From an uncultured Chloroflexia bacterium (lineage in GTDB: Bacteria; Chloroflexota; Anaerolineae; Anaerolineales; UBA4823): a stretch of 64,000 bases of DNA. The DNA lies in contig CAVPJC010000001.1 of the NCBI GenBank assembly GCA_963705155.1, positions 292,392 through 356,391 on the forward strand. Direction: 5' to 3'. This document shows, in pieces, positions 33,163-50,183 of this stretch (position 1 is its first letter; each line of letters begins with the position of its first letter). A model generated the notes under the pieces. That model did not search any database. It was not told the origin of the DNA and saw nothing but the letters and a program-made list of their open reading frames with translations. The position numbers and the translations under genes were made by a program.

Positions 33163-33269
33163 AAAAAAAAAACATGACGAAGGGCACTATTTTCATGTCA
33201 GGAAAACCTCTATGCTGATCTTGTCAAGGTCGTCCTCGCTCATTGCGCTGCATGCTGGAGGGAAAACTC

Positions 33270-36200
33270 ATGCATCACACGCCCGCCCGCCGCCTGACCC
33301 ACCTGATCCTGATCCTCTCGATGCTCCTGCCCGGACTGGCGCCCACGCCCACCCGGGCAGCTTCTTTGTACCAGGCCGGCGACGGCACGCCCACGCCCAG
33401 CGCCACACCGGAGGCGACTGAAACGCCCATCCCTTCCGAGACGCCAATTCCGGAAGTTACAGCGGAAGTCATCTCATCTACTCTGGAGATTCCATCACCG
33501 ACTGCCACACTGACGCCGACGTTGGATGTGACACCCACTCCCACGGCGACCGTGACACCTACGTTGCCCGCGCCAACCCCTATCATAACGACTACGAGCG
33601 TCCCAACTCCTGTGGAGACTGCGCCCGGTGGAGAAATCCTCGTCGCCGATCCTATGAGCCTGACCCTTAGTGCGGATGCTTCCCGTATCACTCCGGGCGG
33701 GGTGCTCAATCTATCCTGGCAGATCGACGGTTGGGCAGACAGTTATAAAGATGTATCTCTGGTCATCCAACCCCCTGCCGGTTTCAGCACTCTGGATGGC
33801 ACGCAGGGTGTTCTCGATGGACAGATCGGTCCCATTAGCCTTGCAGTGCTCTCTGCCGCTGATACGCTTCACTGGCAGATCCCGGCTGACCTGCCTGGTC
33901 CTTACACCCTGACCGCCATACTGAGCCAGGGCGGGAAAGCCATCACGACGCGCACAATTACCCTGCAGGAGACCGGCCTGACCCGCCTGCCTGTCGAAGG
34001 CGGAGTAGCCTCAGGATTAGGTGACCGAGTACGCGTCATTTTTCCCGCCCAGGTGGATGTCCAGATGCTGGATGTTCGCATCCGCCGACCGGTAGCTGCC
34101 TCCATGCCGCCCTACTCTCCCACCGGCGACCCTTTTGAGATCATCGCGCAGGCCAACGGCGAAGCCGTAGAAGCTTTTGACCCACCTCTCACCATCGAAG
34201 CGGCATACACCGGCTTGCGTCCCGCCCAGATCGCCTATTACGACCCTCTCCGGCAAGCCTGGCTGCCTCTCGAAACCGAATGGGATCAGGATGCCGGGGT
34301 GCTGCGCGCCCGGAGCAGCCACCTGACCGTCTTCGACACACCGGTCGTAGACTGGGAGACGGCCCGCACCCCCTCGGTGAAAGACTTCCAGGTCTCCCAG
34401 CAAACCGGGGCAGCCACGTACTCCTTCCCCATCTGGACCCCACCCGGCCTGGCCGGTTTGCAGCCAACATTGGCCCTGTCATACAACAGCCAGACCGCCG
34501 ACAGCGCCACCGCCCCCTACACTCAGGCTTCCTGGGTGGGCATGGGCTGGTCGCTGGATACCGGCTACATCCAGCGCAGCCAACACGCACCCGATCATGA
34601 TACCTACTCGCTGCTGGCGGGTGGGGTCAGCTCGAGCCTGCTGAAGGATAATACCGGCAAATACCACCTGGCCGACGAGAACTACTGGAAAGTGGAGTAC
34701 GATGCGACCAACGACAAATGGACGGCCTGGGATAAAAACGGAACGATCTACCGTTTCGGCAAGAACGCCAACAACACCTACGACGCCCGCGCCCGTTTCC
34801 CGATCTGCAACTCCAACGGAACCATTTCCATGCGAACCTGGAACTGGCCGCTGGTGGAAGTGGAGAACATCTTCAGCCAGAAACTGAGCTACACCTACGA
34901 TTTGACCGACACCAAACGCACCGATTTGTGTGACGATACTCGCACCACGCATCTGGCCGTCTACCCGGAGTATATCACCTACCCCAACGGCAAGTACCGG
35001 GTCAAATTCAATCTGGAAGAGCGCTACGACCACCGCCTGGAGTGGGAAGACAATAACGCTCAGACCTACTTCATGCACAAGCGCCTGAACACGATCGAGA
35101 TCCAACACAATGCGAGCGGAACCTGGCAGAGCGTACGCAGCTATGACCTGACTTACAACGCCGTCATCTTCCCCGGCTGGACATGGGATTACACCTACAA
35201 CGCCCGCACGTTCTCCCTGTCTGGCATCCAGGAAACCGGTCTGAACTCCGCCGCGCTGCCTGCCACCACCTTCAGCTATGCAGACGATCTGCACCTGACC
35301 CTGGCGGGCAATGGCTACGGCGGGAGCGTGGACTTCAGCTATGATCCCGTTTCGTGGTACGATCTCAGCAATGCTGAAGACCACATCCGCAAATATCATT
35401 TCGATCCAGGATCGGATGACTGCGATTCTTGGGACGGCGCCCAGTCTTCGTGTGACGCCCAGGAAGTCCTGCACATCGATGGCGAGGCGGTCCACCTTTT
35501 GCAGCCATCCGCGTTTGGGCCGGGCACAGCCTACAAGGTATCCGCCCGCATCTACAACGAGATCCAGACGGCGCAGAACGCCTCCATCGGTTTGCGCCAT
35601 GCCGCCAGCAGCAACAGCTACATCAGCGCATTGATCCCGGCTTACACATGGAAGGAATTCGAGGGGGTGGTGATCCTGCCTGCCGCTACGCAGTATGGCC
35701 GTGATTGGGAGTTTCGCCCGTTGATGGTGATGGCCTGCCCCAACTGCAAGGTGGAAGACTTCGAGATCACCTGGCTGCCCAGCCGCTACCGGGTAACGGC
35801 GCGCACCACCCACGACAGCGTCACCGGCGCCAGCCAGGTCTACCGCTACGAATACGACGACCCCGCCACCAACGACGCCGAGCACTCGGCCGCCGTGGCG
35901 GGCGAAGACCCGGAGGATGACGACGACCTGTATGATGATCCATATACGCAATACCGCGGCAATGCCATGAGCCGCGAGATTGGCCCGCTGGGAACGGACG
36001 GCACGCAGCGTGTGACCACCACCTGGTATGCCCAGGACGACGCCCGCAAGGGCCAGGCGCTGGGCACGCTGGTGGGCACGCAGTCCTACACCCAGACCTT
36101 CGAAGCCGACCAGTGGAGCGCCTACGCCAGTGACTGGAGCTACTGGAGCTCGAGGCAGATCGCACCGGCCTTCGAGCGCAAGAGCGGGGATGGCGCCCTT

Positions 36201-39200
36201 GTGGTCACCGAAGACTACGGCGAATGGAACAACACCGTGCACCGCAACGAGCACGCCGTCTCGGACGGAGAAGCCATCCTGGTGCAGTTCCAGATCACAG
36301 GCACCACCCCCGGCCAGTCCGAAGCGGTGCTGGCGCTGGAAGTGGGCGATTGGGGAGCCAGCTACCTGCGCTGGGGGGTGCAAGCCAACCTGGGCAGTGC
36401 ATTGTACGCCAGCTACTGCCTGGGAACGAGCTGCTACCACAACACTCTGGCCGATTTGAATTACTTCAAGAAAGGGGCCTGGTACAGCCTGCTGCTGGCG
36501 GTGGATGATGACCAGAAGTTCTTGATGCGCGTCTGGCCGCGCAGCGACCCCTCGGACGCTCGCGAGTACACCTTGAGCCACCCCAGCCTGCCGGGTAAGG
36601 ACTGGCGCTTTGCGGCCTACGCCAACCGCGCCCGGCTGCACCTGGACGAATACAGCGAAGGCAGGCTGTATTCACTCTCCACCACCGGCTATGACAGCGG
36701 CCTCGTCGCTCCCCTGGACGCCGCCTTCAGTGGCTTCCGGGATCTGGCGATCAACTGGACGCGCCCGGTGACCGCTTCGCAGATGAGCTTCAACGGCGAT
36801 GGAACCTGGATCGGCACGCGTACCATTTCTCTGTATGACCCCACCTACCAGAACGGAATCCAGTACGGCAACCAGACGGGTGTCGTCGAAGCCAGGTGGA
36901 GCGGCAGCGCCTGGCTGGATTACCGGGCTGTGCGCACCTGGTACTACCCCTACACCCAGAACGGCAAACACCTGGTGGGACTGCCGGCGGCGGTCAACCG
37001 CTACAAATGCGAGGACGCCGCCTGCGACTACGCCGATAGCGATCTGACCGCCTCGCAGTGGAACCTGTACGACGGGCAGAGCGGGTACTGGATCAGCCCG
37101 AGCAGCGGCAGGCTGACCGCCCAGCGCACAATGACCTGTTTTGCCGACGCCAACAAGGTATGTTATGCGACCTACCAGGCCAACCCAAGCTACGCCCTGT
37201 TCAGCGACCGTCAGTTCGAGTACGACGACTGGGGCAACCCGGTCAAGGTGAAAACCTCGCCGGACTACGGCTGGTTCCTGATGAGCTCGCCCTGGACCAG
37301 CCAACTGGCGAACACCAACCTGCGCGAAACCAGCTCGTGTTACGGCACAGCCAACCAACCCAGCGGCTGCACGGATGACGGCTACCACACCTACCGGCTG
37401 TGGGAGAAGAGCCCGCTGACGGCCAGCACAAACCAGACAGTCTACTGGTCGTATTCCGGTGCGCTGTGGCCCGGATCGAGCTACACCGGCTACAGCCTGG
37501 GCGTGCCGGTCAGCGAGACCGACCCCAACAGTGTAACCACCTGGGCCGAGTACGACGGCCTGGGACGCATGACCAAGGTGATCAAGCCCGGCGACAGCAG
37601 CGCCTACCCGACGCTGCAGGCGGTGTATCACGACGACTGGCAGCCCTTCCTGGTGGATGTGCACCAGCGCCTCACCGCGGGTACCGGCGCCACCTACAGC
37701 CAGCGCAAGCTCTACAACGGCCTGGGGCAGGTCATCCAGGTGCAGACGCCAGCGCGCCGAAGTCTCCGACAATGCCTGTTCCACGGATGCCGATACCAAC
37801 CCGGATGTCTGCGATCTGATCGTGGATACGGCTTACGACGGCTACGGGCAGGTCAATGCACAGACCGTACCCTACGCCCTGGACGACTGGTATTCGGGCA
37901 TGCCGGGGTATCCCACCCCCTCCGCGGGCAGAATTTCATCGGCAGCCCGCGCAACTACACCGCCACGGTCTACGACGTTCTGGGCCGCACGAACAGCGTG
38001 ACCGCCCCGGACGGGACCGAGCACGCTGACCGGCTACCCGGATACTTCTGCGGGCTATGCGGCTTACAACGAAGTGCGCCTGCAGGACGCCCGCGGCAAC
38101 ACCACGCGTACCATTTCGGACGTGTGGGGCCATGCCTATCAGGTCATCCCGCTCAATGGGAATAACGACGGCAGCCCGATCAACCCCACCGTGGCCTACA
38201 CCTACGATGCGCTCGACCGGCTTCTGACCGCCGCCCGCGGCGGAGCCACCGTCAGCCTGAGCTACGATTACGCCGGGCGGATGACGCAGCAGATCGACCC
38301 CGATCTGGGCACATGGGTTTATACTTATAACGCCATGGGAAACCCGACCAGCCGGAAAGACGCCCGTTGCAATGGCAGCAGTTGCGTGACGATCAACTAT
38401 GCCTACGACCACGCCAGCCGCCTGACGCAGAAGGGCTACAGCATCCCCACCGGGTTGAATGTGGCGGCAACCCCCGCGGCGACCTACTTCTACGACGCCG
38501 GGGGAGCGGCAGCCTACGCCATTGGCAGGCGCACCAGCATGACGGATGGCAGCGGCTCGACGACCTGGACGTATGACAGCCGCGGGCGCATGACCCAGGA
38601 GAGCAAGGTCATCAGTGGATCAGGCACCTTTGTGACCCAGTACACCTACAACTCCGCCGACCTGCCGGTAACGATGCGCTACCCGGCGAATGCCAGCGGT
38701 GGATTGGGTGAGACCGTCACCACCACCTACCTGCCGCAGAGACTGGTCAACAGCGTGATCGGCGCCAACACCTACGTCAAATCCAGCACCTACGACGCCG
38801 CCGGGCGGGTGGACGTGCGCCTGCTGGGCGACAGCAGCGGCACGGCAGTGGTCAAGACCGATTTCGATTACTTCGCCTGGAGCGACGTCAACGGCAACGG
38901 GCGGCTCAAACGGATCAAGTCGGAAGATGTGTCACCGTTGACCACGCTGCAAGACTTGCGCTATTACAACACATCCACCGGGGCATCCTTCTATGACGCC
39001 GTGGGCAACCTGACGCGCATCGACGACTACAAGAGCGGCGCGCCGCAAGGGCAGTATTTTGGTTACGACAACCTGTACCGTATCACCAGCGCCTACGCTT
39101 CGGGCGGGACTGGTGGAAACGGCGATTACACCACCGAGAGCTACAATTATGACGCCACAACCGGCAACCTCACCAGCAAGAGCACGGTGGGCAGCTACAG

Positions 39201-39992
39201 TTACGGAACCCAGTCCAGCGGCTGCCTGGAAGGGGCGCTGGCGGCCCACCCGCATGCCGTGGTGACCACAGTGGGAACGACCACGACCACCTACTGCTAT
39301 GACAGGAACGGCAATATGACCCGCCGCGACCCGAGCGGCACGCCAGTATACAACTTCCAATACAACGCCGAGAACCAGATGACGGGGGTGAGCGGCACGG
39401 CCACGGCATCGTTCACATATGATGGCGACGGCAACCGGGTGAAGAGCACGGCAGGGGAGTGACCACCGCCCACGTGGGGGCGTATTTCGAATGGACCGGC
39501 AGCACGGTTACAATGAAGAAGTATTACAGCGCGGGCGGGGCGCGCGTGGCAGTGCGCACGGGGGGCAGCACGCTGGCCTTCATCCTGACCGACCACCTGG
39601 GGAGCACCAGCATCACCACGACCAGCGCCGGTGTGTTGAGCACCGACAACCGCTACAAGGCCTGGGGGGAGTCAAGATACGCCAGCGGGACGCTGCCGAC
39701 GAAGTTCACCTACACCGGGCAGTATTCGAATGTTGCCGAGTTTGGGCTGATGTTTTATGGGGCACGCTGGTACGACAGTTCGCTATCCAGGTTCGCGCAA
39801 GCCGATATCATCGTACCGCTGCAAAACCAGGGCGTGCAGGCGTGGGATCATTATGCGGCGATGAATAATAATCCGGTCAGGTACAACGATCCGAGCGGGC
39901 ATATGGCGGTTTGTCCGGATTGCGGGGGTGGAGGGAATATTTCTGATCAAGAAAAGCTGGAAAGATCCGCTATGCTCGTGCGGCACAAGTAA
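33270..39992 (+). CDS. Secreted giant Rhs/YD-repeat polymorphic toxin (SpvB/TcB-like N-region, YD shell, RHS core); at least 5 frame breaks as assembled
   Basis: GGAGGG precedes ATG 33270. The signal peptide is MHHTPARRLTHLILILSMLLPGLAPTPTRAAS, followed by a Thr/Pro-rich linker. The SpvB-type motif is [29 protein letters not shown]...GMGWSL. Dozens of YD repeats follow (YTYDALDRL, YDYAGRM, YTYNAMGNP...). The RHS core is FTYTGQYSNVAEFGLMFYGARWYDSSLSRFAQAD...NNPVRYNDPSGH. The pieces are ORFs 33243.., 37657.., 38074.. and 39459... Confidence 0.85.
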
Positions 39993-40048
39993 ATCCTCAA
40001 TCGTCTTTAATTAATACCGATGAAATTGCAGAAAAAGCTGGAACTGGT

Positions 40049-40447
40049 TTGGATATGACAAGTATAGCTCAAGGAGCTTTTGCATTAAAAGTTACGGATG
40101 CAATATTACCGGGTCCAGTTTTTGGTGTCATTATCAATTCAGGCATCCAAATACTACAAGACAGTGACCAAAATTTCAATCCGGATGAGGCCGTGTTACG
40201 GGTTGCTACCGCAGCTGCTGAAGGTGTTGCTTTGGATCTGGTGTCTACTTATTTTGGAGATGTTGGTGGTGCAGTTGGTATCGGTTTGGGGGCTGCTGTA
40301 GCACCAGGACCCGTTGCACCAATCATTGGGTTTGGGACTGGCTACTCAGTTGGTGCTGTGTCGAGTTATTTCAATACGAGAAACGTAATTGAAAATGTCA
40401 ACGAAACATATATTTTTCCAGCAATACATCAAATAACTGATAAGTAA
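40049..40447 (+). CDS. Gly/Ala-rich (glycine-zipper-like) protein; probably the frameshifted C-terminal toxin tip of the Rhs protein
   Basis: Its frame is open back to about 39943 and overlaps the Rhs frame across an A-run. It contains GDVGGAVGIGLGAAVAPGPVAPIIGFGTGYSVGAV. GC is low. Confidence 0.5.
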   Translation: MDMTSIAQGAFALKVTDAILPGPVFGVIINSGIQILQDSDQNFNPDEAVLRVATAAAEGVALDLVSTYFGDVGGAVGIGLGAAVAPGPVAPIIGFGTGYSVGAVSSYFNTRNVIENVNETYIFPAIHQITDK

Positions 40448-40514
40448 ATATTCAAGATAGTTTCGATTCCTATGCTCTGAGAATGCGATTTCAACAGGAA
40501 CGGAGATTGCACCA

Positions 40515-41195
40515 ATGGGTCATCTAATTATTTGCGCTCTAGCATCAGTTGCGCCTGGGTTGGGTTTCTGGTTACTTGGGGAGAGACGTCGGGGCACAAT
40601 CATCGCTAGTATTTTTGCTTTCTTTCTCTTTGGAAATTGGATTTTTGGCATTTTGGGATTTGGCTCAAGTACCAAAATATTACTTATTCTGCCTGTTGGT
40701 TTTTGGATTGTCCAACTATTGATTACTTTGGAAAGAATATATATGCGTTACCAACAAATAAAACATCCGGAAAAAGCAGCTGTTATTCCCAATAAAACCA
40801 ATATTGCAAATGACTTGACCAATTATCACCCATCCGTTCAGGCGGCATATCAAGTTGTTATAGCTCAACCAGGAATTGATCGTCAACTACTCCTAGCAGC
40901 AATATTTGGTATTCAAATATCTAGCCGAAAGGCATGGGTATATATTCCATACCGCATATTGTATTTGGGTCTGACACATGAATTTACAATAATAGTTGAA
41001 GCGGACAAACTTGGTACGCCGATGTTGATTGAACGCTTGGAAAACAGTAAAATTATAAATAAAAGTTATATCCAAGGTTCAATGAATGACCAATTAAAGC
41101 TTGAATTTAGAGATGGTGAAATTATCAACTTATTAGTAACAATACAACAACGTGCGGAGACCGCAGTGTTCGCATCTATGTTCATAGATGCATAA
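40515..41195 (+). CDS. Hypothetical membrane protein, candidate Rhs immunity protein
   Basis: 226 aa with 3 N-terminal TM helices and a soluble C-terminal domain. GC is very low (about 37%). It lies immediately downstream of the toxin tip. Confidence 0.45.
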   Translation: MGHLIICALASVAPGLGFWLLGERRRGTIIASIFAFFLFGNWIFGILGFGSSTKILLILPVGFWIVQLLITLERIYMRYQQIKHPEKAAVIPNKTNIANDLTNYHPSVQAAYQVVIAQPGIDRQLLLAAIFGIQISSRKAWVYIPYRILYLGLTHEFTIIVEADKLGTPMLIERLENSKIINKSYIQGSMNDQLKLEFRDGEIINLLVTIQQRAETAVFASMFIDA

Positions 41196-41201
41196 AAATT
41201 T

Positions 41202-41669
41202 ATGTCTATTCTCATCCTGTCCCGGCCAAACTTAACCAGTGCTCTGACCGTTACATCTGCTACTAATGGCAACTACAGCGAGAGCTACGATTACGACGCC
41301 GCCAGCGGCAACCCCTCCCAGAAAGCGGGTGGAAATTACACCTACGATATGGTCAAAAAACATGCCGTGCGCCGCGTAAACGCCAGCGGCGGCGCCTCCA
41401 AAACCATCCAGGTGCGGGCGTATTCCACGCCGTGCAGCGATGGCGTGCGCGCCACGATGGAGCTGCGCGTCAATGGCAGCCTGGTAACCACCTGGAGCAA
41501 CGTGGCTGTGGCCTGGACAACCCACAGCGCCAACACTCCCCTGTCGGGTAAAGACCAGATCGAAGTGGTGTTTACCAACGACTGCTACAACGGCGGTTAT
41601 GACCGCAACCAGTTTTCACACGAATGTCAGGCAGGGTATGGTTCCGGGGGATTGGAGAGCGGGTTGTGA
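41202..41669 (+). CDS. Orphan Rhs-repeat fragment joined to a carbohydrate-binding-module-like domain
   Basis: NGNYSESYDYDAASGNPSQKAGGNYTYDMVKKHAV parallels GNGDYTTESYNYDATTGNLTSKSTVGSYSYG...HPHAV of the main gene (about 39120-39260). Next comes IQVRAYS...MELRVNGSLVTTW...IEVVFTNDCYNGGYDRN (CBM-like). The 3' end is unclear. Confidence 0.45.
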   Translation: MSILILSRPNLTSALTVTSATNGNYSESYDYDAASGNPSQKAGGNYTYDMVKKHAVRRVNASGGASKTIQVRAYSTPCSDGVRATMELRVNGSLVTTWSNVAVAWTTHSANTPLSGKDQIEVVFTNDCYNGGYDRNQFSHECQAGYGSGGLESGL

Positions 41670-41806
41670 TTTGGCTCGGGAAACCGGTATGAAATATTTG
41701 TTGGGTTGGTGGGCAGGCTTTTCCTGCGTATGGCCGTCGTTTTTTGCCCACCAATCCAACCTACGACTATTGACTCTAGACTGATGATACGTTATCCTAT
41801 ACACAA

Positions 41807-43186
41807 ATGTATAGAATGAGTGAACTTAACCAATTGAACCGCAAGATATTTCACACCAACGACCTGGCTGTTTTGTGGAAGATAACCAATCGGCACAATC
41901 TGTATATGACCATCACCCGCTACATTGACAGGGGGGTGCTGTTTCCAATCTATAAAGGCATGTACGCTACGGTTTCCCCGGCCTCCCTGAACCCCCTGGA
42001 ACTGGGCCAGGCTGTTATTCACCGGTACACCTACCTGACGACCGAATCGGTCCTCGCGCAGGCGGGGATTATCTCTCAATTGGTCTACGATTATACTTTT
42101 GTCGCCGATCTGTCCAAGCGCGTCTCAGTCGGAACCTGGTCTTTTCGGTATCGCAAGCTCAAAGATATTTATCTCCATAATCCTGCTGGTATCGTCGATC
42201 ACAGTGGAGTTTTTATCGCTACTGCAGAACGAGCCGTGGCGGATTTGCTTTATTTCAACCCTAAATATCACTTTGATGTTCCGGAAAGCATCGATTTCGA
42301 AAAGGTCAAGTTAATCCAACAAGAAGTCGGATATCCTCCTGTTAAACTGTTTAATGTACAATGCCATGGTATAAGCCGTTTTTCGATGTTGGTAGGGAAC
42401 GCTGATCGCTTGACAACAACCCACAGAAAACAGCTCCTCCTGCAGCGCCTGGATGAGATCGGCGCCTCCCTGGCCCGCTCCTCCGGCGCCCTGGCCCTGA
42501 TCGGCCTGGGTTCGGTGGGCCTGGAACAGGAGCGCCTGGACGCATACTCCGATCTCGACTTCTTCGTCATCGTCGAGACCGGCTGCAAGGCCGCCTTCCT
42601 GGACGACCTGTCCTGGCTGAGCGCCATCCACCCGGTCGCCTACCGTTTCAAGAATACCGCCGATGGCTACAAGCTGCTCTTCGCCGACGATATCTTCTGC
42701 GAATTTGCCATTTTTGAGCCGCACGAGCTGCAGGCCGTGCCCTTTGCCGCAGGCCGCATCGTCTGGAAGGCGCCCGGCGTCAGCGATGACATCGGCATCC
42801 CCGCCCGGCCTCCCGGGGCGCAAGCACCCGCCGCGTTGGAATGGCTGCTGGGGGAAGCCCTCACCTGCCTGTACGTCGGTATGGGGCGTTACCGGCGCGG
42901 TGAAAAACTCTCGGCCCAGCGTTTCATCCAGCATTACGCCGTCGACCGCCTGCTGGAGTTATCCAGCCGGGTGGAAAGCGAAGCGCCCGCCTTGCGGGAC
43001 GCGTTTGCCCCGGAGCGGCGCTACGAGCAGCGCTTTCCGCAAACCGCCCGCCTGCTGCCGCAGTTCGTCCAGGGCTACGCCGCCATCCCCCAATCGGCCC
43101 TGGCGATCCTCGATTTCCTCGACCGGCACTTTGAGGTGGATGCCGCCCTCAAAACCAAAATCCGCCAACTGTGCCTGCCAGAGTAA
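41807..43186 (+). CDS. AbiEi-like antitoxin/wHTH domain fused in frame to a nucleotidyltransferase (ANT(6)/KNTase-like) domain
   Basis: The N-terminus is IFHTNDLAVLWKITNRHNLYMTITRYIDRGVLFPIYKGMYA (AbiEi-type). The C-terminal half is ALIGLGSVGLEQERLDAYSDLDFFVIVE (the GS..x..D.D NTase motif) plus a helical domain. There is no stop between the two halves. GC jumps at about 42380-42420. Confidence 0.6.
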   Translation: MYRMSELNQLNRKIFHTNDLAVLWKITNRHNLYMTITRYIDRGVLFPIYKGMYATVSPASLNPLELGQAVIHRYTYLTTESVLAQAGIISQLVYDYTFVADLSKRVSVGTWSFRYRKLKDIYLHNPAGIVDHSGVFIATAERAVADLLYFNPKYHFDVPESIDFEKVKLIQQEVGYPPVKLFNVQCHGISRFSMLVGNADRLTTTHRKQLLLQRLDEIGASLARSSGALALIGLGSVGLEQERLDAYSDLDFFVIVETGCKAAFLDDLSWLSAIHPVAYRFKNTADGYKLLFADDIFCEFAIFEPHELQAVPFAAGRIVWKAPGVSDDIGIPARPPGAQAPAALEWLLGEALTCLYVGMGRYRRGEKLSAQRFIQHYAVDRLLELSSRVESEAPALRDAFAPERRYEQRFPQTARLLPQFVQGYAAIPQSALAILDFLDRHFEVDAALKTKIRQLCLPE

Positions 43187-43229
43187 CGATTTCTGCTGCC
43201 CATGCGTGCGCCGCCAGGGGGCTCAGGGC

Positions 43230-45092
43230 TCAACCGCCACCAGCACCGCCCTGCACCACCCTGCGCCAGCGGTATGCGCCGTCCGCCTCGTCATAGCCCT
43301 GGCAGGTGATCAGCGTGACCCACGCCCGTTCCTCGTGCCGCAGCACCTTGAGCTGGTCGGGAGAGACCATGCTGTTCTCGCGCACCTCGTAGATATAGCG
43401 CTGCCCCCAGGCATGGATGATCACCCGGTCGCCCCATTGCAAAGTTTGCAGGTTGGCAAACGGCCCCGGGCTGCCATCCGCCAGGGTGGAATGCCCGGCC
43501 AGCCCGCTGTTTCCCTCCCAGGTGGGATAGGCGGTCCCTTCCAGGTATCCGGCTTCGCCCCCCAGCCAGCGCACATCCCAGCCGCTGCCGCTCTTTGGCA
43601 CCCCCAGGATGGCCATCTTTTGGCCCAGCGCAGGGATTTCCAGGCTCATTTCATCCTGCTGAGAATAGGCCAGGGCAGCGGGCTGCGCCGGCAGAGGGGT
43701 GTGCACATCGGGCGCAAAACCCGTGGCCGGCAGCTGCACCGCCCCCAGCAGGTTTAAAAACGCCTCACCGGCGCGTGTTTTGGCTTCGAGGTTGCGCCCG
43801 CTGGCCCCGGCGACAAACCAGTCGCGCGAAAGGGCCACCGACTTGCCAAACAGGTCATTCTCGCCTGCCGGGTCGGTGACGGCGCGGGTCTGCATGTTCC
43901 ACGCGCCTTTGCTCTTTTTGAAAATATACACCGCCCCGGCGCCATTGTTACCCGCCTGAACGGCCCCATCGGCCCCGACCACTACCGTGTCGCCGTAGAT
44001 ATCCACCGCCTGGCCGAGCCGCTCAAAAACCTGGGCGCCCTGCGCCGCCAGCATGGCTTCCTCCACCCATTCGTCCCCCCGGTCGCTGAATACGTAGGCT
44101 GCCCCCGCGCTGGTGACCTGCCCCCCGCCCAGGTCGGGATCGGCATGATACGCCCCCACCACGATCGTCTTTCCATGGATTGCCAGTGAATTGCCAAAAG
44201 CATCCCCGGCTCGACCGTTTTCCGCTTCCAGCCGGGCTTCGCTTTGCCATGTTTTTCCGCTGCGCCGGAACACCCACACCTTCCCCGGCCCGCTCTCGCC
44301 CGTCAGGTTGAACTGCGGCGCGCCCACGCCGATCAAATCGCCCTGTACCGCCACCGACGTGCCAAAATAATCGCCCAGCCACGGGTCAGGCGGCAGAAGT
44401 CGGGCCTGCTGGCTCCAGTTTTTTCCGCTGCTGCGGTAAAAAACATACGCTGCGCCCACGTCGATCAGGGTACCCATGTCCTTCGTCTCGGCTGCCACCA
44501 CCACCGTGGATTTGTCAACCGCCACCCCTGAGCCAAATGAGTCGTCTTCTGCCGGGTCGGCGGCAGTGAGAATGGCCTGCTGCACCCACTTCCCGCTGCT
44601 GCGGGCGAAAACGTAGGCCGCGCCGGCGTCATCCAACCACCCGTCCTCCTGATCCTCATCCGCCAGGTCGACGCCGGTGGCGCCCACCACGATGGTATTG
44701 CCGCTGATTCCCACGGATACGCCAAAGGTATCGCCTGCCGCGGCGTCATCAGCCGTCAACCTGGCTTCCAGAACCCAGGTATTGCTGCTGCGCACATAAA
44801 CATAGGCTGCCCCGGCATTGCTCACCGCTCCCCCGCCCAGGTCGGGATCGGCGTTGCGCGCCCCGATGACCGCCGTGTTGCCGTCGATCGCCACCGCGCT
44901 GCCGAACTCATCCAGGCTTTTTCCGTCGGGCGCAGCCAGCGACCACTGCTGCACGACCCCCAGGGTTGGGACCGCGCTGCCCGACGCCTGCCAGCCAGAG
45001 GCCAGCCCCGCCTGCGCCGCAGGCAGCAGCGCCAGCAGCAGCAAAACAGATATGGATAGGTATCGTTTAACCAGATTCAGGGTTGCAGCCAT
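43230..45092 (-). CDS. Secreted seven-bladed FG-GAP-like beta-propeller fused to a C-terminal sortase domain
   Basis: GGAGGTG precedes ATG 45092, and a signal peptide follows. Seven repeats of the form FG.SVA..G.T.VVGA ... GAAYVF are present. LPATG is at 43719-43733. The sortase motifs are LEIPALG, GNSGLAGHS, TLITC (Cys codon 43302-43304) and YRWRRVV. Confidence 0.8.
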   Translation of the reverse strand: MAATLNLVKRYLSISVLLLLALLPAAQAGLASGWQASGSAVPTLGVVQQWSLAAPDGKSLDEFGSAVAIDGNTAVIGARNADPDLGGGAVSNAGAAYVYVRSSNTWVLEARLTADDAAAGDTFGVSVGISGNTIVVGATGVDLADEDQEDGWLDDAGAAYVFARSSGKWVQQAILTAADPAEDDSFGSGVAVDKSTVVVAAETKDMGTLIDVGAAYVFYRSSGKNWSQQARLLPPDPWLGDYFGTSVAVQGDLIGVGAPQFNLTGESGPGKVWVFRRSGKTWQSEARLEAENGRAGDAFGNSLAIHGKTIVVGAYHADPDLGGGQVTSAGAAYVFSDRGDEWVEEAMLAAQGAQVFERLGQAVDIYGDTVVVGADGAVQAGNNGAGAVYIFKKSKGAWNMQTRAVTDPAGENDLFGKSVALSRDWFVAGASGRNLEAKTRAGEAFLNLLGAVQLPATGFAPDVHTPLPAQPAALAYSQQDEMSLEIPALGQKMAILGVPKSGSGWDVRWLGGEAGYLEGTAYPTWEGNSGLAGHSTLADGSPGPFANLQTLQWGDRVIIHAWGQRYIYEVRENSMVSPDQLKVLRHEERAWVTLITCQGYDEADGAYRWRRVVQGGAGGG

Positions 45093-45112
45093 TTTACTCA
45101 CCTCCACCTAGC

Positions 45113-46049
45113 TCACCGGGTTGCCAGCGCCAGAAAAACATCTTCCAGCGTGGGTTCCACCTGTTCAACACGTACAGCCTGCAGGCCCGCCTCGTTCAGG
45201 CGATCCTCCAAAACCTTTGCGGTTACATCTGCCGGAGCGATGGCCCGCAGATGGTCACCGGTCAGTCCGGCGCGGAAAACACACGGACAACTTTCCAGAG
45301 CGTTCAAGGCTACCAACAGCGGCGGTTCCTGCTCATGATCCGCCTCGCCAACAAACACATCCCATGCCAGGCCCGGCAGCGCCGTTTCCTTCAAAGCCGA
45401 GGGTGTATCCATCGCCAGCAGCCGGCCATCGCGCATGATGCCCACCCGCCCGCAGTATTCGGCCTCATCCATGTAATGCGTGGTCACCAGGGCTGTCACG
45501 CCCTGCCCCACCAGCGTCATAGATCAGATCCCAGAAGGCCCGCCGCGCCGTCGGGTCGACGCCGCTGGTGGGCTCATCCAGAAACAGCAGGCGCGGCCGG
45601 TGCACAATCGCCGTCCCCAGCGCCAGTCGCTGCCGCCAGCCTGCCGACAGGCTGCCCACCAGCTCCTTTTGCAGGGCGTTTAGACCCACCAGGTCCAGCA
45701 CCTCGTCCAGCCGCTGGCGGCGTGTCTCACCGTAAACACCGGCATAGAACGCCAGGTTTTCTCCCACGGTCAGATCATGGTACAGGGCGAACTTCTGCGA
45801 CATGTACCCCACCTGGGTGCGGATGCGCTCCGCATCCCGCACCACATCGTACCCCAGCACGCTCGCCTGCCCTGCGGTGGGGCGCAGCAGCCCCAGCAGC
45901 ATGCGGATGGTGGTGGTCTTGCCCGAGCCGTTCGGCCCCAGGTAACCCACCACCTCGCCCTGCCCCATCTGAAACGTGACGTGATCCACGGCGACGAATT
46001 CACCGAAGTTTCGCGTCAGGTCCTTGGTGATGATGACATCTTCAGGCAT
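45113..46049 (-). CDS. ABC transporter ATP-binding protein (one frame break near 45510)
   Basis: MPEDVIITKDLTRNFG..., GPNGSGKTT, LSAGWRQRL and LLFLDEP, then ...VTALVTTHYMDEAEYC in ORF 45113..45520. Confidence 0.8.
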
Positions 46050-47012
46050 TGTTGTTTTCCAGCAAATCGATAAAAACATCTTCCAGCTGGGCCGGAACCA
46101 GGCGCAGTTGGATGATTTCGCCGCCCGCCTCGGGGATGCGCTGGCTCCAGCCGCTCCATCACCGCCTGGGCGCAGCCTGTGCGCACATGCAAATGGATCC
46201 GGTCGCCAAACATGTGCGCATCCTGCACATCTTCATCCTGGCTGGGCCAGGCCGGCGCAGCAGCGCCAGCGGGCTGGCCGCGCAGCTCCAGGATGCGCCC
46301 ATCCAGGCGGTGTCCGCAGACCCGACGGCGTGCCTTCCACCAGCAGCCTGCCGTTCTGCATGAACCCCACCCGCCGGCAGCGGGCCGCTTCGTCCATATA
46401 GGGGGTGCTCACCAGCACCGCCACGCTCTCTTCGCCTTTCCGGCGCCGCCAGGCGGATGATGAGCTGCCAGAAATCCTGGCGTGTCACCGGATCCACGCC
46501 GGTGGTGGGCTCGTCCAGCAGCAGCACGCGCGGGCGGTGCACCAGCGCGGCCGCCAGGCCCAGCTTTTGCTTCATCCCGCCGGAGAGCTTCCCCGCCCGG
46601 CGGTCGATAAAGGCGTCCAGCCCCACAAAGCGCAGGATCTCCATGCAGCGCGGCCGCCACTCGGCGGCGGGCAAGGCCGCGCACCTCGGCAAAGAAGCGG
46701 ATATTCTCCATGACGGTCAGGTCCTCGTACAATGAAAAGCGCTGCGGCAGGTAGCCAATCTGAGCGCGGGCCTGCTCGGTCTGGCGCAGTACATCGTACC
46801 CGCCGATCTCAATCTGCCGGAGCCGGCCGCCGTGCCGGCCGGTCGGGCCGCAGCGCGCCGCACAGCAGCCGCAGGGTGGTGGTCTTGCCGGCGCCATCCG
46901 GCCCGACCAGGCCGTAAATTTCGCCGGACGCCACCTGCAGGCTCAGATCCACCACAGCCTGTGTGGCGCCAAAGGATTTATTCAGTGAAACAGCGTTGAT
47001 CAGGCTGTTCAT
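46042..47012 (-). pseudogene. ABC transporter ATP-binding protein, 5 or more frame breaks as assembled
   Basis: The pieces sit in 5 frames: [15 protein letters not shown]...GPDGAGKTT; [20 protein letters not shown]; [33 protein letters not shown]; [14 protein letters not shown]; and [14 protein letters not shown]. The reconstructed stop is at 46042-46044, overlapping the next start. Confidence 0.75.
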
Positions 47013-47019
47013 AAGCGGG

Positions 47020-48374
47020 TTATTTGAAAATCACATCCACCGGCATGCCCGGTTTCAACTTGCCTTCCGGGTTTGTAATTGCCAGTTGGATGGCATATAC
47101 GGTGGTGCGCCGGCCTTCCTCCGTTTGCACATTGCGCGGTGTGAACTCCGCCTGGTCGGCGATACGCGCCACCACAGCTGAGAATATCTCGCCTGGGAAC
47201 AAATCGATCTCTCACCTCCACCGCCTGGCCCAGGCTGACCTCACCGTAGCGGTCTTCGGGCACGTAAACCGTGATGGTCAGGTCATCCAGGCGCGCCAGC
47301 GTGAGCAGCGGCGCCCCGGCACAGCCACCTCTCCTGGCTCCACAGAGCGGGTGAGCACCACCCCCTCCACCGGGGCCTTGATCGTCAGCTTGCCGATCTG
47401 TGTCTCGATCACCTGCAGCGGCAGAACGGGCTACCTCCACCTGCGCCTGGGCGGCTGCCAGCTGCTCCGGGCCTGGCTCGGCCTGTGCTGCCGCCAGGCT
47501 GGCTTCGGCTATCTATCAGGCGCGCCTGCGCCAGGGCCAGCGCATCCGGGTCGATGCCCGTCCTGCAGCTCTGCGTAGCTGCCGCTGCGAATCTGCCAGC
47601 CTGCGCCTCCGCCAGGGCCACATCGGCGTTTAGCCAGGGACAGCTCATACTTGTTGGCTGTGCCCAACCAGGTTGTTATATCGTTCCACCACGGCATCGT
47701 ACTGCTTTTGCGCTGCCGGCTAGCTTGCGCCTGCAGAACGGCGCGGGTCAGGTTGCTTTGATCTTTGTTTTCATATGGGCTCAAAATCTTCCTGCGCCTT
47801 TTCCAGCTTATCCTGGGCAATCACCACCGAGGCCCAGGCCGCATCGATATCCGCCGGGTTGGCCTGGGTACTGACATTATCCAGGTACTGCTGCGATTTA
47901 TCGCGGGCTTTGTCAATCGAGGCGATCGTTTGCTAGGGTCTGGGCTTCAGCCAGACCTGGGCTGATCGTACAGCGCCTGCAGGGCCTGCTGTGCATTGGT
48001 CAGCTCCATCTCGGCAGAAGCCATCGCCAGGGCGCGCTGCTCGTCGGAAAGCCCTTTGGCAGCCAGCTCGTAGTTGGCCTGCGCCTGGCGCCAGAGCAGC
48101 CTGGGCCTGGGCCAGCTGCGCCTGCAGCAAGGCGCCATCGAAACGCACCAGCACATCACCGGCCTGCACTGCATCGCCTTCTTGAGCCAGCACTTCGAGC
48201 ACATGCCCCGCCAGCTCGGGGGCTACCAACACCTGGATGGCTTCGATGGTGCCCGAAGCTGCAAGTTCACCAGACACGGCATCCGTGCGGTTGTTGTTCA
48301 GATACCACCAGCCGGCCGCAGCCAGGGCAATCAGTAAAATGACGGGTGCAATTCTTCGTCGGGTTGGGATGCAT
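47020..48374 (-). pseudogene. HlyD-family periplasmic adaptor (membrane-fusion) protein, multiple frame breaks as assembled
   Basis: GGAGGA precedes ATG 48374. By hand translation, a TM anchor (RRIAPVILLIALAAAGWWYL) sits in a shifted frame. Other pieces are GTIEAIQVLVAPELAGHVLEVLAQEGDAVQAGDVLVRFD and the C-terminus FTPRNVQTEEGRRTTVYAIQLAI...GMPVDVIF. Confidence 0.75.
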
Positions 48375-48426
48375 AAACTTCCTCCGTTCTACATCGTCAA
48401 TGGTGAGCGGGTTGTCGCAGCCTGTC

Positions 48427-49562
48427 TCAATCCAGGCGCTTTCGGAAACGCAGCGACGCCAGGGTCATGATACTCAGGCCAAATATCGCCAGGGCAATAA
48501 TCTCATTGCGCAGTGCGGCCGATGCCAACGCCTTTCAGCATCAGCGTGCGGATGATCACCAGGTAGTAGCGCAGCGGCATCAGATACGAAATCCACTGCA
48601 GCAATTTGGGCATGGCTTCGATGGGAAAGAAGAAACCGGACAGGAACATGCTGGGCAGCAGAGTCATCCACACCGTCAGCATGGCTTCCTGCTGGGTGTT
48701 GGCGATGGTGGAGGCCAGCAGACCGATGCCCAGGCTGGAGAGCAGGAACAGACCCGATAGCGCCAGGATCAGCCACAAATCGCTGCGGATGGGCACCTTG
48801 AACCACCAGGAACCCACCGCCAGCACCTCCAGCGTGTTCAAGAAGGCCAGGATCACGTAAGGCAGCAATTTTCCAACCACCAATTCCCAGGGGCGGATCG
48901 GTGTGACGATCAACTGCTCGATCGTGCCACGCTCCGCTCGCGCACAATCGCCGTGGCGGTCAGGATGGAAGTGAGGGCAAACAGGATCATGCCGATCACA
49001 CCCGGGATCATGAAATAGGCGCTCACCAGGTCGGGGTTGTACCACACCTGGGTGCGCACCTCGACGGGGGGCTGCACCGCCGTGGTTTGGCCGCGCCGCG
49101 GCCATGCGCTCCACCAGGATGCGTGTGGCATGCTGCTGGCCGATAAACTGCGCCGCCGAAAGCGCTGTGGATGCCACGGTGGGATCGCTGCCATCCAGCA
49201 CAAAAGCCACCTGGGCCACCTCACCGGCCTGCAGGCGGCTGCCGTAATCCGGCGGGATGATCATCCCGGCGCGTGCTTTGCCGCTATCGATCAGGTCGCG
49301 CAGCTCATCCTCGGAATCCACATCGTAGGCGATGCTGAAGTAGTCGGCGGCGCGGTAGGCATCCAGCAAAGCGCGCGCTTCCGGGCTGCGGTCCTGGTTA
49401 TAGACTGCCAGGGGCACGTTGCGCACATCGTTGGTGGCAGCAGTACCCCAGCAGCACCAGCTGCATCACCGGGATCACCAGCACCAGGATCAGCGTGCGC
49501 GGATCGCGCAGGATCTGGATGAATTCTTTGCGTACCAGTGAAACCAGACGGGAATTGATCAT
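48427..49562 (-). pseudogene. ABC-2-type efflux permease, multiple frame breaks as assembled
   Basis: MINSRLVSLVRKEFIQILRDPRTLILVLVIPVMQLVLLGY (hand translation from ATG 49562), then ATNDVRNVPLAVYNQD..., then the ABC-2 membrane domain ...IANTQQEAMLTVWMTLLPSMFLSGFFFPIEAMPKLLQWISYLMPLRYY. The start overlaps the tetR stop (ATGA). Confidence 0.75.
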
Positions 49563-50183
49563 GTTACCTCCGGCGCGGCAGACCCATTTTTTATAATACC
49601 GTACAGATAAATATCCACAAACGTATCCAGAGCCCGGTCGTGCATCTCTCGGGGGAACTGGTTTCCCACCAGCAGCTCGGTCATCACATAGGAAAAGAAT
49701 AAACCCACAAAAGTGCGCACCAGCATCATGGCCGGGATCGGGCGCAGTTCGTCCCTGGAGTCGACAAACCGCTGCACAAAGTCTAAAATCTGGGGGAAAA
49801 CGATCTGGAATAGAGCCGGGACATGCTGCCCATTAAACTCAACCACCTCAATAAACATCAGGTTGAGCAGATCGGTGCGCTTCCCCAGGCCTTCCACCAA
49901 CCGCCGGGCGGCGTCACGCACGAACTCATCCATGCTGCCGCCCTCAGCCGCGTTAATCAGCGGCAGCACCTCAAGATAGGGGTGCCGTTCCAATAATACG
50001 GTTTTGAAGATCTTCGTCTTTGCCAGAAAAATGGTTATAAATACTGCCCAGGGCAATGCCGGTCTCCTGGGCAATCTGGCGCATGGAGGTGCCGTGATAG
50101 CCTTTCAGCATAAACAGGTTATACGCCGCCTGGAGGATCTCCGTGCGGGTGCGCTCACCGCGTGTGATCGTTTCTTCAGACAT
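49559..50183 (-). CDS. TetR/AcrR-family transcriptional regulator (one frame break near 50012)
   Basis: The N-terminal HTH is RTRTEILQAAYNLFMLKGYHGTSMRQIAQETGIALGSIYNHF (ORF 49971..50183). The ligand domain is ORF 49559..50074. Removing one A at about 50012 gives ...GKDEIFKTVLLERHPY. Confidence 0.8.

Follow-up and report, generated by a model that had tools for sequence, protein, structure and literature searches.

Gene and protein architecture at the locus

The analysed window, the whole 64,000-nt stretch at positions 292,392-356,391 of contig CAVPJC010000001.1 (assembly GCA_963705155.1), comes from an uncultured Chloroflexia bacterium (UBA4823). It contains a gene for a predicted secreted protein in which an FG-GAP propeller, an LPATG motif and a sortase domain follow one another in a single polypeptide. 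Its features are listed below; the C-terminal part of the protein from the motif onwards is hereafter called the cassette.

43230..45107, minus strand: whole open reading frame (ORF) as assembled, 625 aa from GTG 45107 or 620 aa from ATG 45092
45009..45092, minus strand: predicted Sec-type signal peptide M6-A33, read from the sequence and from the orthologue pattern
43740..44969, minus strand: seven-bladed FG-GAP_2 β-propeller, the passenger, aa ~47-456, from Pfam, AlphaFold2 and Foldseek
43719..43733, minus strand: LPATG sorting motif L459-G463 with the predicted scissile bond between T462 and G463, from conservation
43644..43718, minus strand: conserved post-motif segment F464-A-P466 and linker, from conservation and a predicted local distance difference test score (pLDDT) of 95-96
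43230..43643, minus strand: sortase catalytic β-barrel, aa 489-625, from Pfam, the invariant His/Cys/Arg and structural alignment
43491-43493, 43302-43304 and 43263-43265, minus strand: catalytic residues His539, Cys602 and Arg615, respectively

The 620-aa form corresponds to the start chosen in the initial annotation, which had been made from the sequence letters, and to the protein-database record P0002. The predicted signal peptide has K14 and R15 in its n-region, a hydrophobic core and AQA at positions 31-33, with the cut predicted before G34. This pattern is common to all orthologues, and AlphaFold2 modelled an N-terminal helix followed by disorder at 31-46. In the passenger, Pfam recognized seven FG-GAP_2 stretches (E 3e-82), and the 28 blade strands were modelled with pLDDT >90. 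The full protein, modelled by AlphaFold2 from an 87-sequence alignment, consists of a seven-bladed propeller and a β-barrel (pLDDT 87.1, predicted template modelling score (pTM) 0.76). The structural matches of the propeller in Foldseek are the integrin alpha4, alpha5 and alphaV propellers (E 1e-19 to 1e-16), and by both its repeats and its fold it belongs to the FG-GAP/integrin-alpha type of seven-bladed propellers. No pilin-like acceptor lysine motif was seen in the propeller in the orthologue alignment, where K209 (77/87), K236 and K179 are moderately conserved.

With its N-terminal signal peptide and LPXTG motif, the protein resembles a classical surface protein, but the C-terminal hydrophobic segment and basic tail expected no more than ~35 residues past the motif are lacking, and FAP, a linker and a 137-aa sortase are found there instead. 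The initial annotation had described seven FG-GAP repeats after a signal peptide, LPATG at 43719-43733, a complete sortase domain beyond it, and no hydrophobic helix with a charged tail after the motif. Its repeats were recovered by Pfam and AlphaFold2 and its signal peptide by the orthologue pattern; the motif is indeed placed there, at residues 459-463; the sortase was recognized as PF04203 with its LEIPALG, GLAGHS (His539), TLITC (Cys602) and RWRRV (Arg615) motifs; and the absence of a helix and tail agrees with the sequence and with the lack of a transmembrane (TM)-like segment in the cassettes.

About 90 of the best 120 database relatives carry both FG-GAP_2 and Sortase (43-71% identity; 87-90 aligned) and served as the orthologue set. 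Among them, L459, P460, G463, F464 and P466 never vary, 86/90 have T462 and the remaining four Ala at that position, and position 461 varies freely (E39, A21, D13, S12, N5). Linker residues T470, L472, Q475, P476 and Y481 are each >90% conserved. In terms of sequence, an invariant L/P/G with a free x is the substrate-specificity pattern of sortases, and the conservation indicates that LPATG does not stand at the domain junction by chance. Loss of the motif in orthologues, named beforehand in the initial annotation as an outcome that would count against its proposal, was not seen, LPxTG being kept in the 87-90 orthologues. The proposal itself, of an enzyme with a recognition motif of its own where the two domains meet, gains support from conservation in the orthologues, in cassettes on unrelated passengers and in genus representatives (see below).

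The sortase domain was matched by PF04203 at aa 489-619 with 70.4 bits against a cut-off of 26.6, which assigns it to the Sortase superfamily (MEROPS C60). His539, Cys602 and Arg615 show no exception among 87-90 orthologues or among 117-129 genus representatives, and Cys602 is the sole conserved cysteine in the orthologue alignment. The eight-stranded β-barrel has the sortase fold, as shown by alignment to SrtA 7cfj/7f87 with VIA-align (Z 17.6, root-mean-square deviation 1.9-2.0 over 133 residues), and scores Z ~17 against sortases from classes A, C, E and F. The catalytic domain lacks an adjoining membrane anchor; it is preceded by the propeller and LPxTG in a chain whose cassette has no hydrophobic segment. 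None of the class-specific NCBIfam cut-offs was reached (bits/cut-off: class C 47.8/160, E 46.8/160, D 37/165, F 28.3/166, GN 30.5/158), and the generic TIGR01076 was narrowly passed (39.5/39.35). Nor does the protein have the features of class C: LPxTGFAP takes the place of the DP[FWY] lid, a C-terminal TM segment is absent, and the neighbours are ABC (ATP-binding cassette) exporter genes, not pilins.

The position of the motif relative to the active site was assessed on the cassette of an intact orthologue (P0003:462-638), modelled by AlphaFold2 with pLDDT 95.4 and pTM 0.91. LPxTG occupies residues 9-13 of this model, and residues 11-30 (TGFAP and linker) have pLDDT 95-96. In the model, the motif segment is thus an ordered element of the sortase domain, packed on the barrel, and not a floppy tether. 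Structural alignment reaches model residues 5-7 for group B Streptococcus (GBS) SrtC1, A. oris SrtC-1, S. pneumoniae SrtC-1/C-3, C. diphtheriae SrtA and B. anthracis SrtA, whose active site is in each case covered by an N-terminal lid or appendage, whereas lid mutants (3rbj, 6bwe) and class A/E enzymes align from 23-34 only. In HMMER, TGFAP...Y...LEIP of the cassette aligns with PGLDPF...Y...LTIP of the Ebp class C sortase. The lid of class C sortases occupies the substrate groove. Since the cassette segment matches the position of this lid, LPxTG would lie at or next to the catalytic centre, an indirect placement by homology.

The assembled reading frame deviates from the family at its very end:

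43223..43253, minus strand: frameshift site with one extra base at ~43252/43253, from the family consensus and a metagenome contig

As assembled, the last seven codons read QGGAGGG* (...RRVVQGGAGGG*), out of frame with the family end ...RRVVRAVLVxV. Skipping one base at ~43252/43253 gives RAVLVAVEP*, the family consensus, ending at 43223, with the probable true stop at 43223-43225. A hot-spring metagenome yielded an 869-nt contig of ~94.5% identity with exactly one base fewer at 43252, and other contigs of the same run are likewise one base short at 45516, 46147, 47418 and further sites. Among the public runs listed as containing the sequence, none was of RNA. Relative to this ~95% identical relative, the listed extra-base sites of the window are 43252, 45092, 45516, 46147 and 47418-47628; tblastn with an intact orthologous operon showed frame breaks that fall on two of them, 43252 and 45516. 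The extra base at 43252 is therefore probably an insertion error of the assembly, as are the indels in the upstream operon, judging by these sequence comparisons. If real, the frameshift would remove part of β8.

A C-terminal LPxTG-sortase cassette on many passengers

Judged by sequence, the last ~170-175 residues, comprising LPxTG, the conserved linker and the sortase, are a modular C-terminal cassette. A profile built from the last ~175 residues of the orthologue alignment was searched against 1.84 billion cluster representatives, and 1406 clusters matched at E<1e-30. The top 150 clusters (150/150) all have the cassette at the extreme C-terminus, on proteins of 225-4649 aa; the match starts with the motif, at profile positions 2-7, and the spacing from the motif to the catalytic Cys is 140-147 residues. 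Exact LPxTG is found in 111/150, most others having [IVAM]PxTG or LPx[SA]G. An alignment of 112 cassettes on unrelated passengers gave L93/112, P112/112, a free x, T106, G112/112, F110, A101 and P106, and the eight residues ahead of the motif are unconserved, so that conservation sets in exactly at the motif L.

The passenger domains include FG-GAP_3, DUF11/CLIPPER, DUF7933, SdrD_B, Cna-B pilin-like, Big_1, CARDB, β-helix and PMP repeats, a repertoire that matches Gram-positive sortase substrates and adhesins. Signal peptides are present on full-length members, and no TM-like segment was seen in the cassettes of the members examined. FG-GAP_2 propeller homologues of other phyla end in other sorting or anchoring domains, for instance those of the type IX secretion system (T9SS type A; P0092, P0121). 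The initial annotation had also offered the propeller as a substrate-recruiting or wall-binding module; this fits less well with the same cassette standing behind many unrelated passengers.

At a threshold of ≥150 bits, the cassette was found in 129/36,145 genus representatives, and ~126 of these 129 carriers belong to the Chloroflexota class Anaerolineae (728 genera drawn), to which it is nearly confined. The motif is conserved here as well (L 105/108, P 123/123, T 123/123, G 126/126, F 120/126), together with the catalytic H (117/117) and C (129/129). The survey of the architecture across Chloroflexota suggested in the initial annotation therefore showed a fusion widespread in Anaerolineae, not a one-off, with the junction LPxTG kept. 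Among 121 Anaerolineae genomes, true cassettes number 1-2 per genome, their open frames being 768-2986 aa long. Two cassette matches are cut, one at a contig end (G036) and one in a 203-aa frame (G101). The latter, L009 on contig C4, is a cassette-type sortase without LPxTG and possibly a truncated or decayed copy.

The next-best matches in these genomes, at 108-123 bits, are ordinary sortases of 278-327 aa with an N-terminal TM helix. These free-standing enzymes align to the profile from position 34-35 only and lack LPxTGFAP; therefore, the motif travels with the passenger, not with the enzyme as such. The F-A-P after the motif and the linker are specific to the fused cassettes.

The genome of the window (5.27 Mb, 26 contigs, 84.8% complete) encodes three sortase domains: a TM-anchored classical enzyme on contig C4, the propeller fusion and a second fusion of another kind:

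L002:150-1866, contig C19: DUF11/CLIPPER repeats, LPGTG, TM, RARR, TM, sortase

The N-terminal part of this second fusion is frame-broken in the assembly. It represents a DUF11-LPxTG-TM-TM-sortase family of 700-1000 aa with at least 118 clusters, named "sortase [Anaerolineales bacterium]", in which LPxTG stands just ahead of the first TM segment in 112/118 clusters. Because this second family fuses a complete sorting signal to its enzyme, a sortase acting on an upstream LPxTG in the same chain appears, from sequence, to be a recurring theme of the lineage. A search of the genome for LPXTG-tailed substrates, also proposed earlier, was successful: at least one classical substrate is present, ending in LPSTGF, a hydrophobic stretch and RRLRTAN. 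The F after G in LPSTGF, like the invariant F464, hints at a lineage-wide P2' preference. The LPSTGF-signal protein and a neighbouring 839-aa ORF with an MPRTG-type signal lie on the plus strand of contig C20 (ORFs at offsets 84270 and 90354).

Proposed self-processing and its alternatives

In known sortase biology, a separate membrane-anchored enzyme meets substrates that are held in the membrane by their sorting signal. The protein described here shares with classical sortase/LPXTG sorting (S. aureus SrtA with protein A) the enzyme fold, the His-Cys-Arg residues and LPxTG with a free x, as well as the signal peptide of the substrate and passenger domain types of Gram-positive bacteria. In contrast to that system, enzyme and substrate are one polypeptide, the enzyme has no anchor, and the motif is followed by the invariant F-A-P and an enzyme-packed linker in place of the hydrophobic segment and basic tail. 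What would be new is sortase/LPXTG sorting in a cis, anchor-less configuration.

Starting from what is observed, namely the architecture with its conservation and modularity, catalytic residues that are all intact, and models in which the motif is ordered and placed like a lid, we propose, with a probability of roughly 0.6, that the cassette is a self-processing module that cuts between Thr462 and Gly463 and transfers the propeller to a nucleophile of the cell envelope. From these features we infer the cleavage, its mode (cis or trans) and the nature of the nucleophile. After export by Sec and removal of the signal peptide, the junction motif would dock in the sortase groove of its own chain or of a sister molecule. 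Cys602, assisted by His539 and Arg615, would then attack the Thr462-Gly463 bond to give a propeller-LPAT thioacyl enzyme, and an envelope amine would resolve the thioester, the candidate acceptors being a side chain of peptidoglycan or lipid II or a lysine in a different surface protein. In this way the propeller would become covalently attached, and the sortase domain, now starting with GFAP, would be spent or released. Overall, the cassette would act as a C-terminal sorting signal equipped with an enzyme of its own, used for a single turnover. Where the cassette follows other passengers, no neighbouring gene is conserved, which is what one would expect of a self-sufficient module.

Several points weigh against this proposal. 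Self-cleavage in every family member is deduced from sequences and models, and it is not obvious how a soluble cassette that lacks a membrane anchor would reach lipid II. Class C lids demonstrate that an N-terminal segment can fill the groove uncut. The copy in the window might moreover be inactive if the frameshift in the last strand is real.

The lid comparison can be taken further, to an autoinhibitory LPxTGFAP that fills the groove and is never cut, the passenger targeting or tethering a sortase that acts on other proteins. The motif segment does lie at the position of the class C DP[FWY] lid and is modelled as ordered; the low copy number of 1-2 cassettes per genome and the candidates for classical cell-wall sorting signals in the same genome point the same way. 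Pseudosubstrates, however, normally lose the scissile residues, while T and G are invariant here and x is free, and the free sortases of the lineage do without the motif. Adhesin-repeat passengers of up to 4,400 aa are also implausible as enzyme tethers, and neither cassette nor passenger has a membrane anchor, all of which makes an uncut lid unlikely. Cleavage could alternatively be the work of the housekeeping sortase with the N-terminal TM helix (contig C4), which would cut the junction LPATG and anchor the propeller, leaving the fused domain as a retention or recognition element or as a released soluble enzyme. A classical TM-anchored sortase is indeed encoded in the genome, along with at least one classical substrate whose motif also has F next (LPSTGF). 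We find processing by this enzyme improbable, as it would leave unexplained both the invariant His, Cys and Arg of the fused domain and the packing of the motif and linker on that domain in the models.

Another reading accepts the self-cleavage with all its evidence and differs in the last step: water would resolve the thioester after the cut between T and G, so that the cassette is a removable pro-domain and the propeller is freed, not anchored. Sortases hydrolyse slowly when a nucleophile is absent, and there is no membrane anchor to bring the enzyme near lipid II. Keeping a full transpeptidase to hydrolyse one bond would nevertheless be uneconomical, and adhesin-like passengers are expected to be surface-bound; release is accordingly given little credence here. 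The frame break at ~43252 and the at least nine breaks in the upstream operon could, finally, be real and mark a decaying pseudogene from which nothing functional is made in this organism. All the listed indels, however, go in the same direction, as extra bases in the window, and match single-base absences in short-read contigs of the ~95% relative, a pattern that is the signature of assembly errors in a metagenome-assembled genome (84.8% complete, 26 contigs). The 1.75 kb from 44999 to 43251 are otherwise one clean frame, and the chance that the gene is decaying seems small.

Among known sortases, the best NCBIfam and sequence neighbours of the cassette are the class C pilus sortases (S. pneumoniae SrtC-1, GBS SrtC1, E. 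faecalis Ebp SrtC), together with classes D and E. They have a comparable N-terminal segment ~25 residues before β1 that lies over the groove, and the structural alignment spans this segment. The cassette differs from them by LPxTG in place of DP[FWY], by the absence of a C-terminal TM segment and of a pilin cluster, and by a score of 47.8 bits against 160. Hedgehog/HINT C-domains and T9SS C-terminal domains follow the same logic, in that a C-terminal module is removed and the passenger is covalently transferred; yet their folds and chemistry are unrelated to those of the cassette, and T9SS requires a separate sortase-like enzyme. Propeller homologues in other phyla carry T9SS C-terminal domains where the cassette sits. 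The second Anaerolineales fusion (the L002 family) is likewise a natural substrate-sortase fusion with LPxTG upstream of the enzyme, but it keeps a full sorting signal (LPxTGG) and two TM helices, its halves being membrane-tethered, and has no F-A-P linker. The closest engineered counterparts are self-cleaving sortase fusions such as BISOP, in which sortase, LPXTG and target follow in one chain and the protein cuts itself (PMC2901362). The fusion in the window is natural and has the order passenger-LPxTG-sortase, so that the passenger would become the acyl donor.

The initial annotation knew of no characterised example of this fusion, and the literature search returned only the engineered self-cleaving sortase tags and unrelated papers. 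A prior description of the junction LPxTG or of the cassette was not found in the full-text literature; subscription journals were mostly outside this search, and an earlier account is possible. No dedicated Pfam or NCBIfam model for the cassette was found, database members carrying generic "sortase family" names. Whether the proposal extends to the whole family is, in our estimate, an evenly balanced matter: LPxTG-sortase cassettes would then be an unrecognised class of self-contained sorting module, with a single-use sortase behind the LPxTG of each surface protein in many Anaerolineae, that ligates passengers to the envelope or to one another as subunits of covalent fibres or sheaths without any membrane-bound sorting enzyme, and the TM-linked DUF11 fusions would be an evolutionary intermediate. 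If true, this natural and widespread union of an enzyme with its substrate in a single secreted polypeptide would open a new route to surface display, with a bearing on the building of the envelope in filamentous Chloroflexota, a structure that is poorly understood, and sortases would join the single-turnover autoprocessing domains beside Hedgehog/HINT. A possible yield would be self-ligating protein tags that need no added enzyme, some of them from thermophiles.

Upstream operon and surroundings of the gene

An exporter operon precedes the propeller-sortase gene:

45113..50183, minus strand: TetR, ABC-2 permease, YknX/HlyD-like adaptor and two ABC ATPases, from tblastn and synteny

Its genes are split into at least nine frame pieces, as judged by tblastn with the intact orthologous operon, and given the indels, caution is due with gene calls anywhere in the window. 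The propeller-sortase gene starts 5 nt (GTG) or 20 nt (ATG) past the end of the ABC ATPase ORF at 45113. The initial annotation was thus right in placing it behind an efflux operon on the same strand, whereas its distance of 5 nt holds from GTG and becomes 20 nt from the ATG that it had chosen.

An ABC-2 exporter operon is found 28-66 nt upstream on the same strand in 5/6 orthologous loci, L017 being different. Two types occur: TetR, permease, YknX, ATPase and ATPase (window, L016, L018), and YhfC, ATPase, permease and an Ig-like membrane protein (L019-L021). The product of the Big_7-like gene upstream in loci of the second type is a membrane protein that has a zinc ribbon on its cytoplasmic side and no evident substrate features. 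A role of the ABC exporter in the mechanism was considered and rejected: PF12698 was found within 8 kb in 3/129 cassette carriers compared to 6 at random places. By likeness band, it was seen in <3/66 carriers at 40-59% and in 3/60 at 60+%, with under 5 tried in each of the two lower bands. Because the census shows no enrichment and cassettes with other passengers have other neighbours, not the ABC-2 operon, the link is specific to the FG-GAP_2 orthologue group or plain synteny.

Further observations concern the flank beyond the 3' end of the gene. On the plus strand at 33243-39992, a 1640-aa ORF without a Pfam match overlaps a 462-aa ORF with RHS repeats (E 7e-26); a frame break seems to have divided a single Rhs/YD-repeat polymorphic-toxin gene into these two. 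After these ORFs, the guanine-plus-cytosine content falls to 0.40-0.50 at ~39500-42500, compared to ~0.63-0.65 in the flanks, and the stretch contains small ORFs (DUF6677-like and CBM60-like). It may represent an Rhs tip/immunity region or a foreign island. A 459-aa ORF without an assigned family, at 41807-43186, is convergent with the sortase gene.

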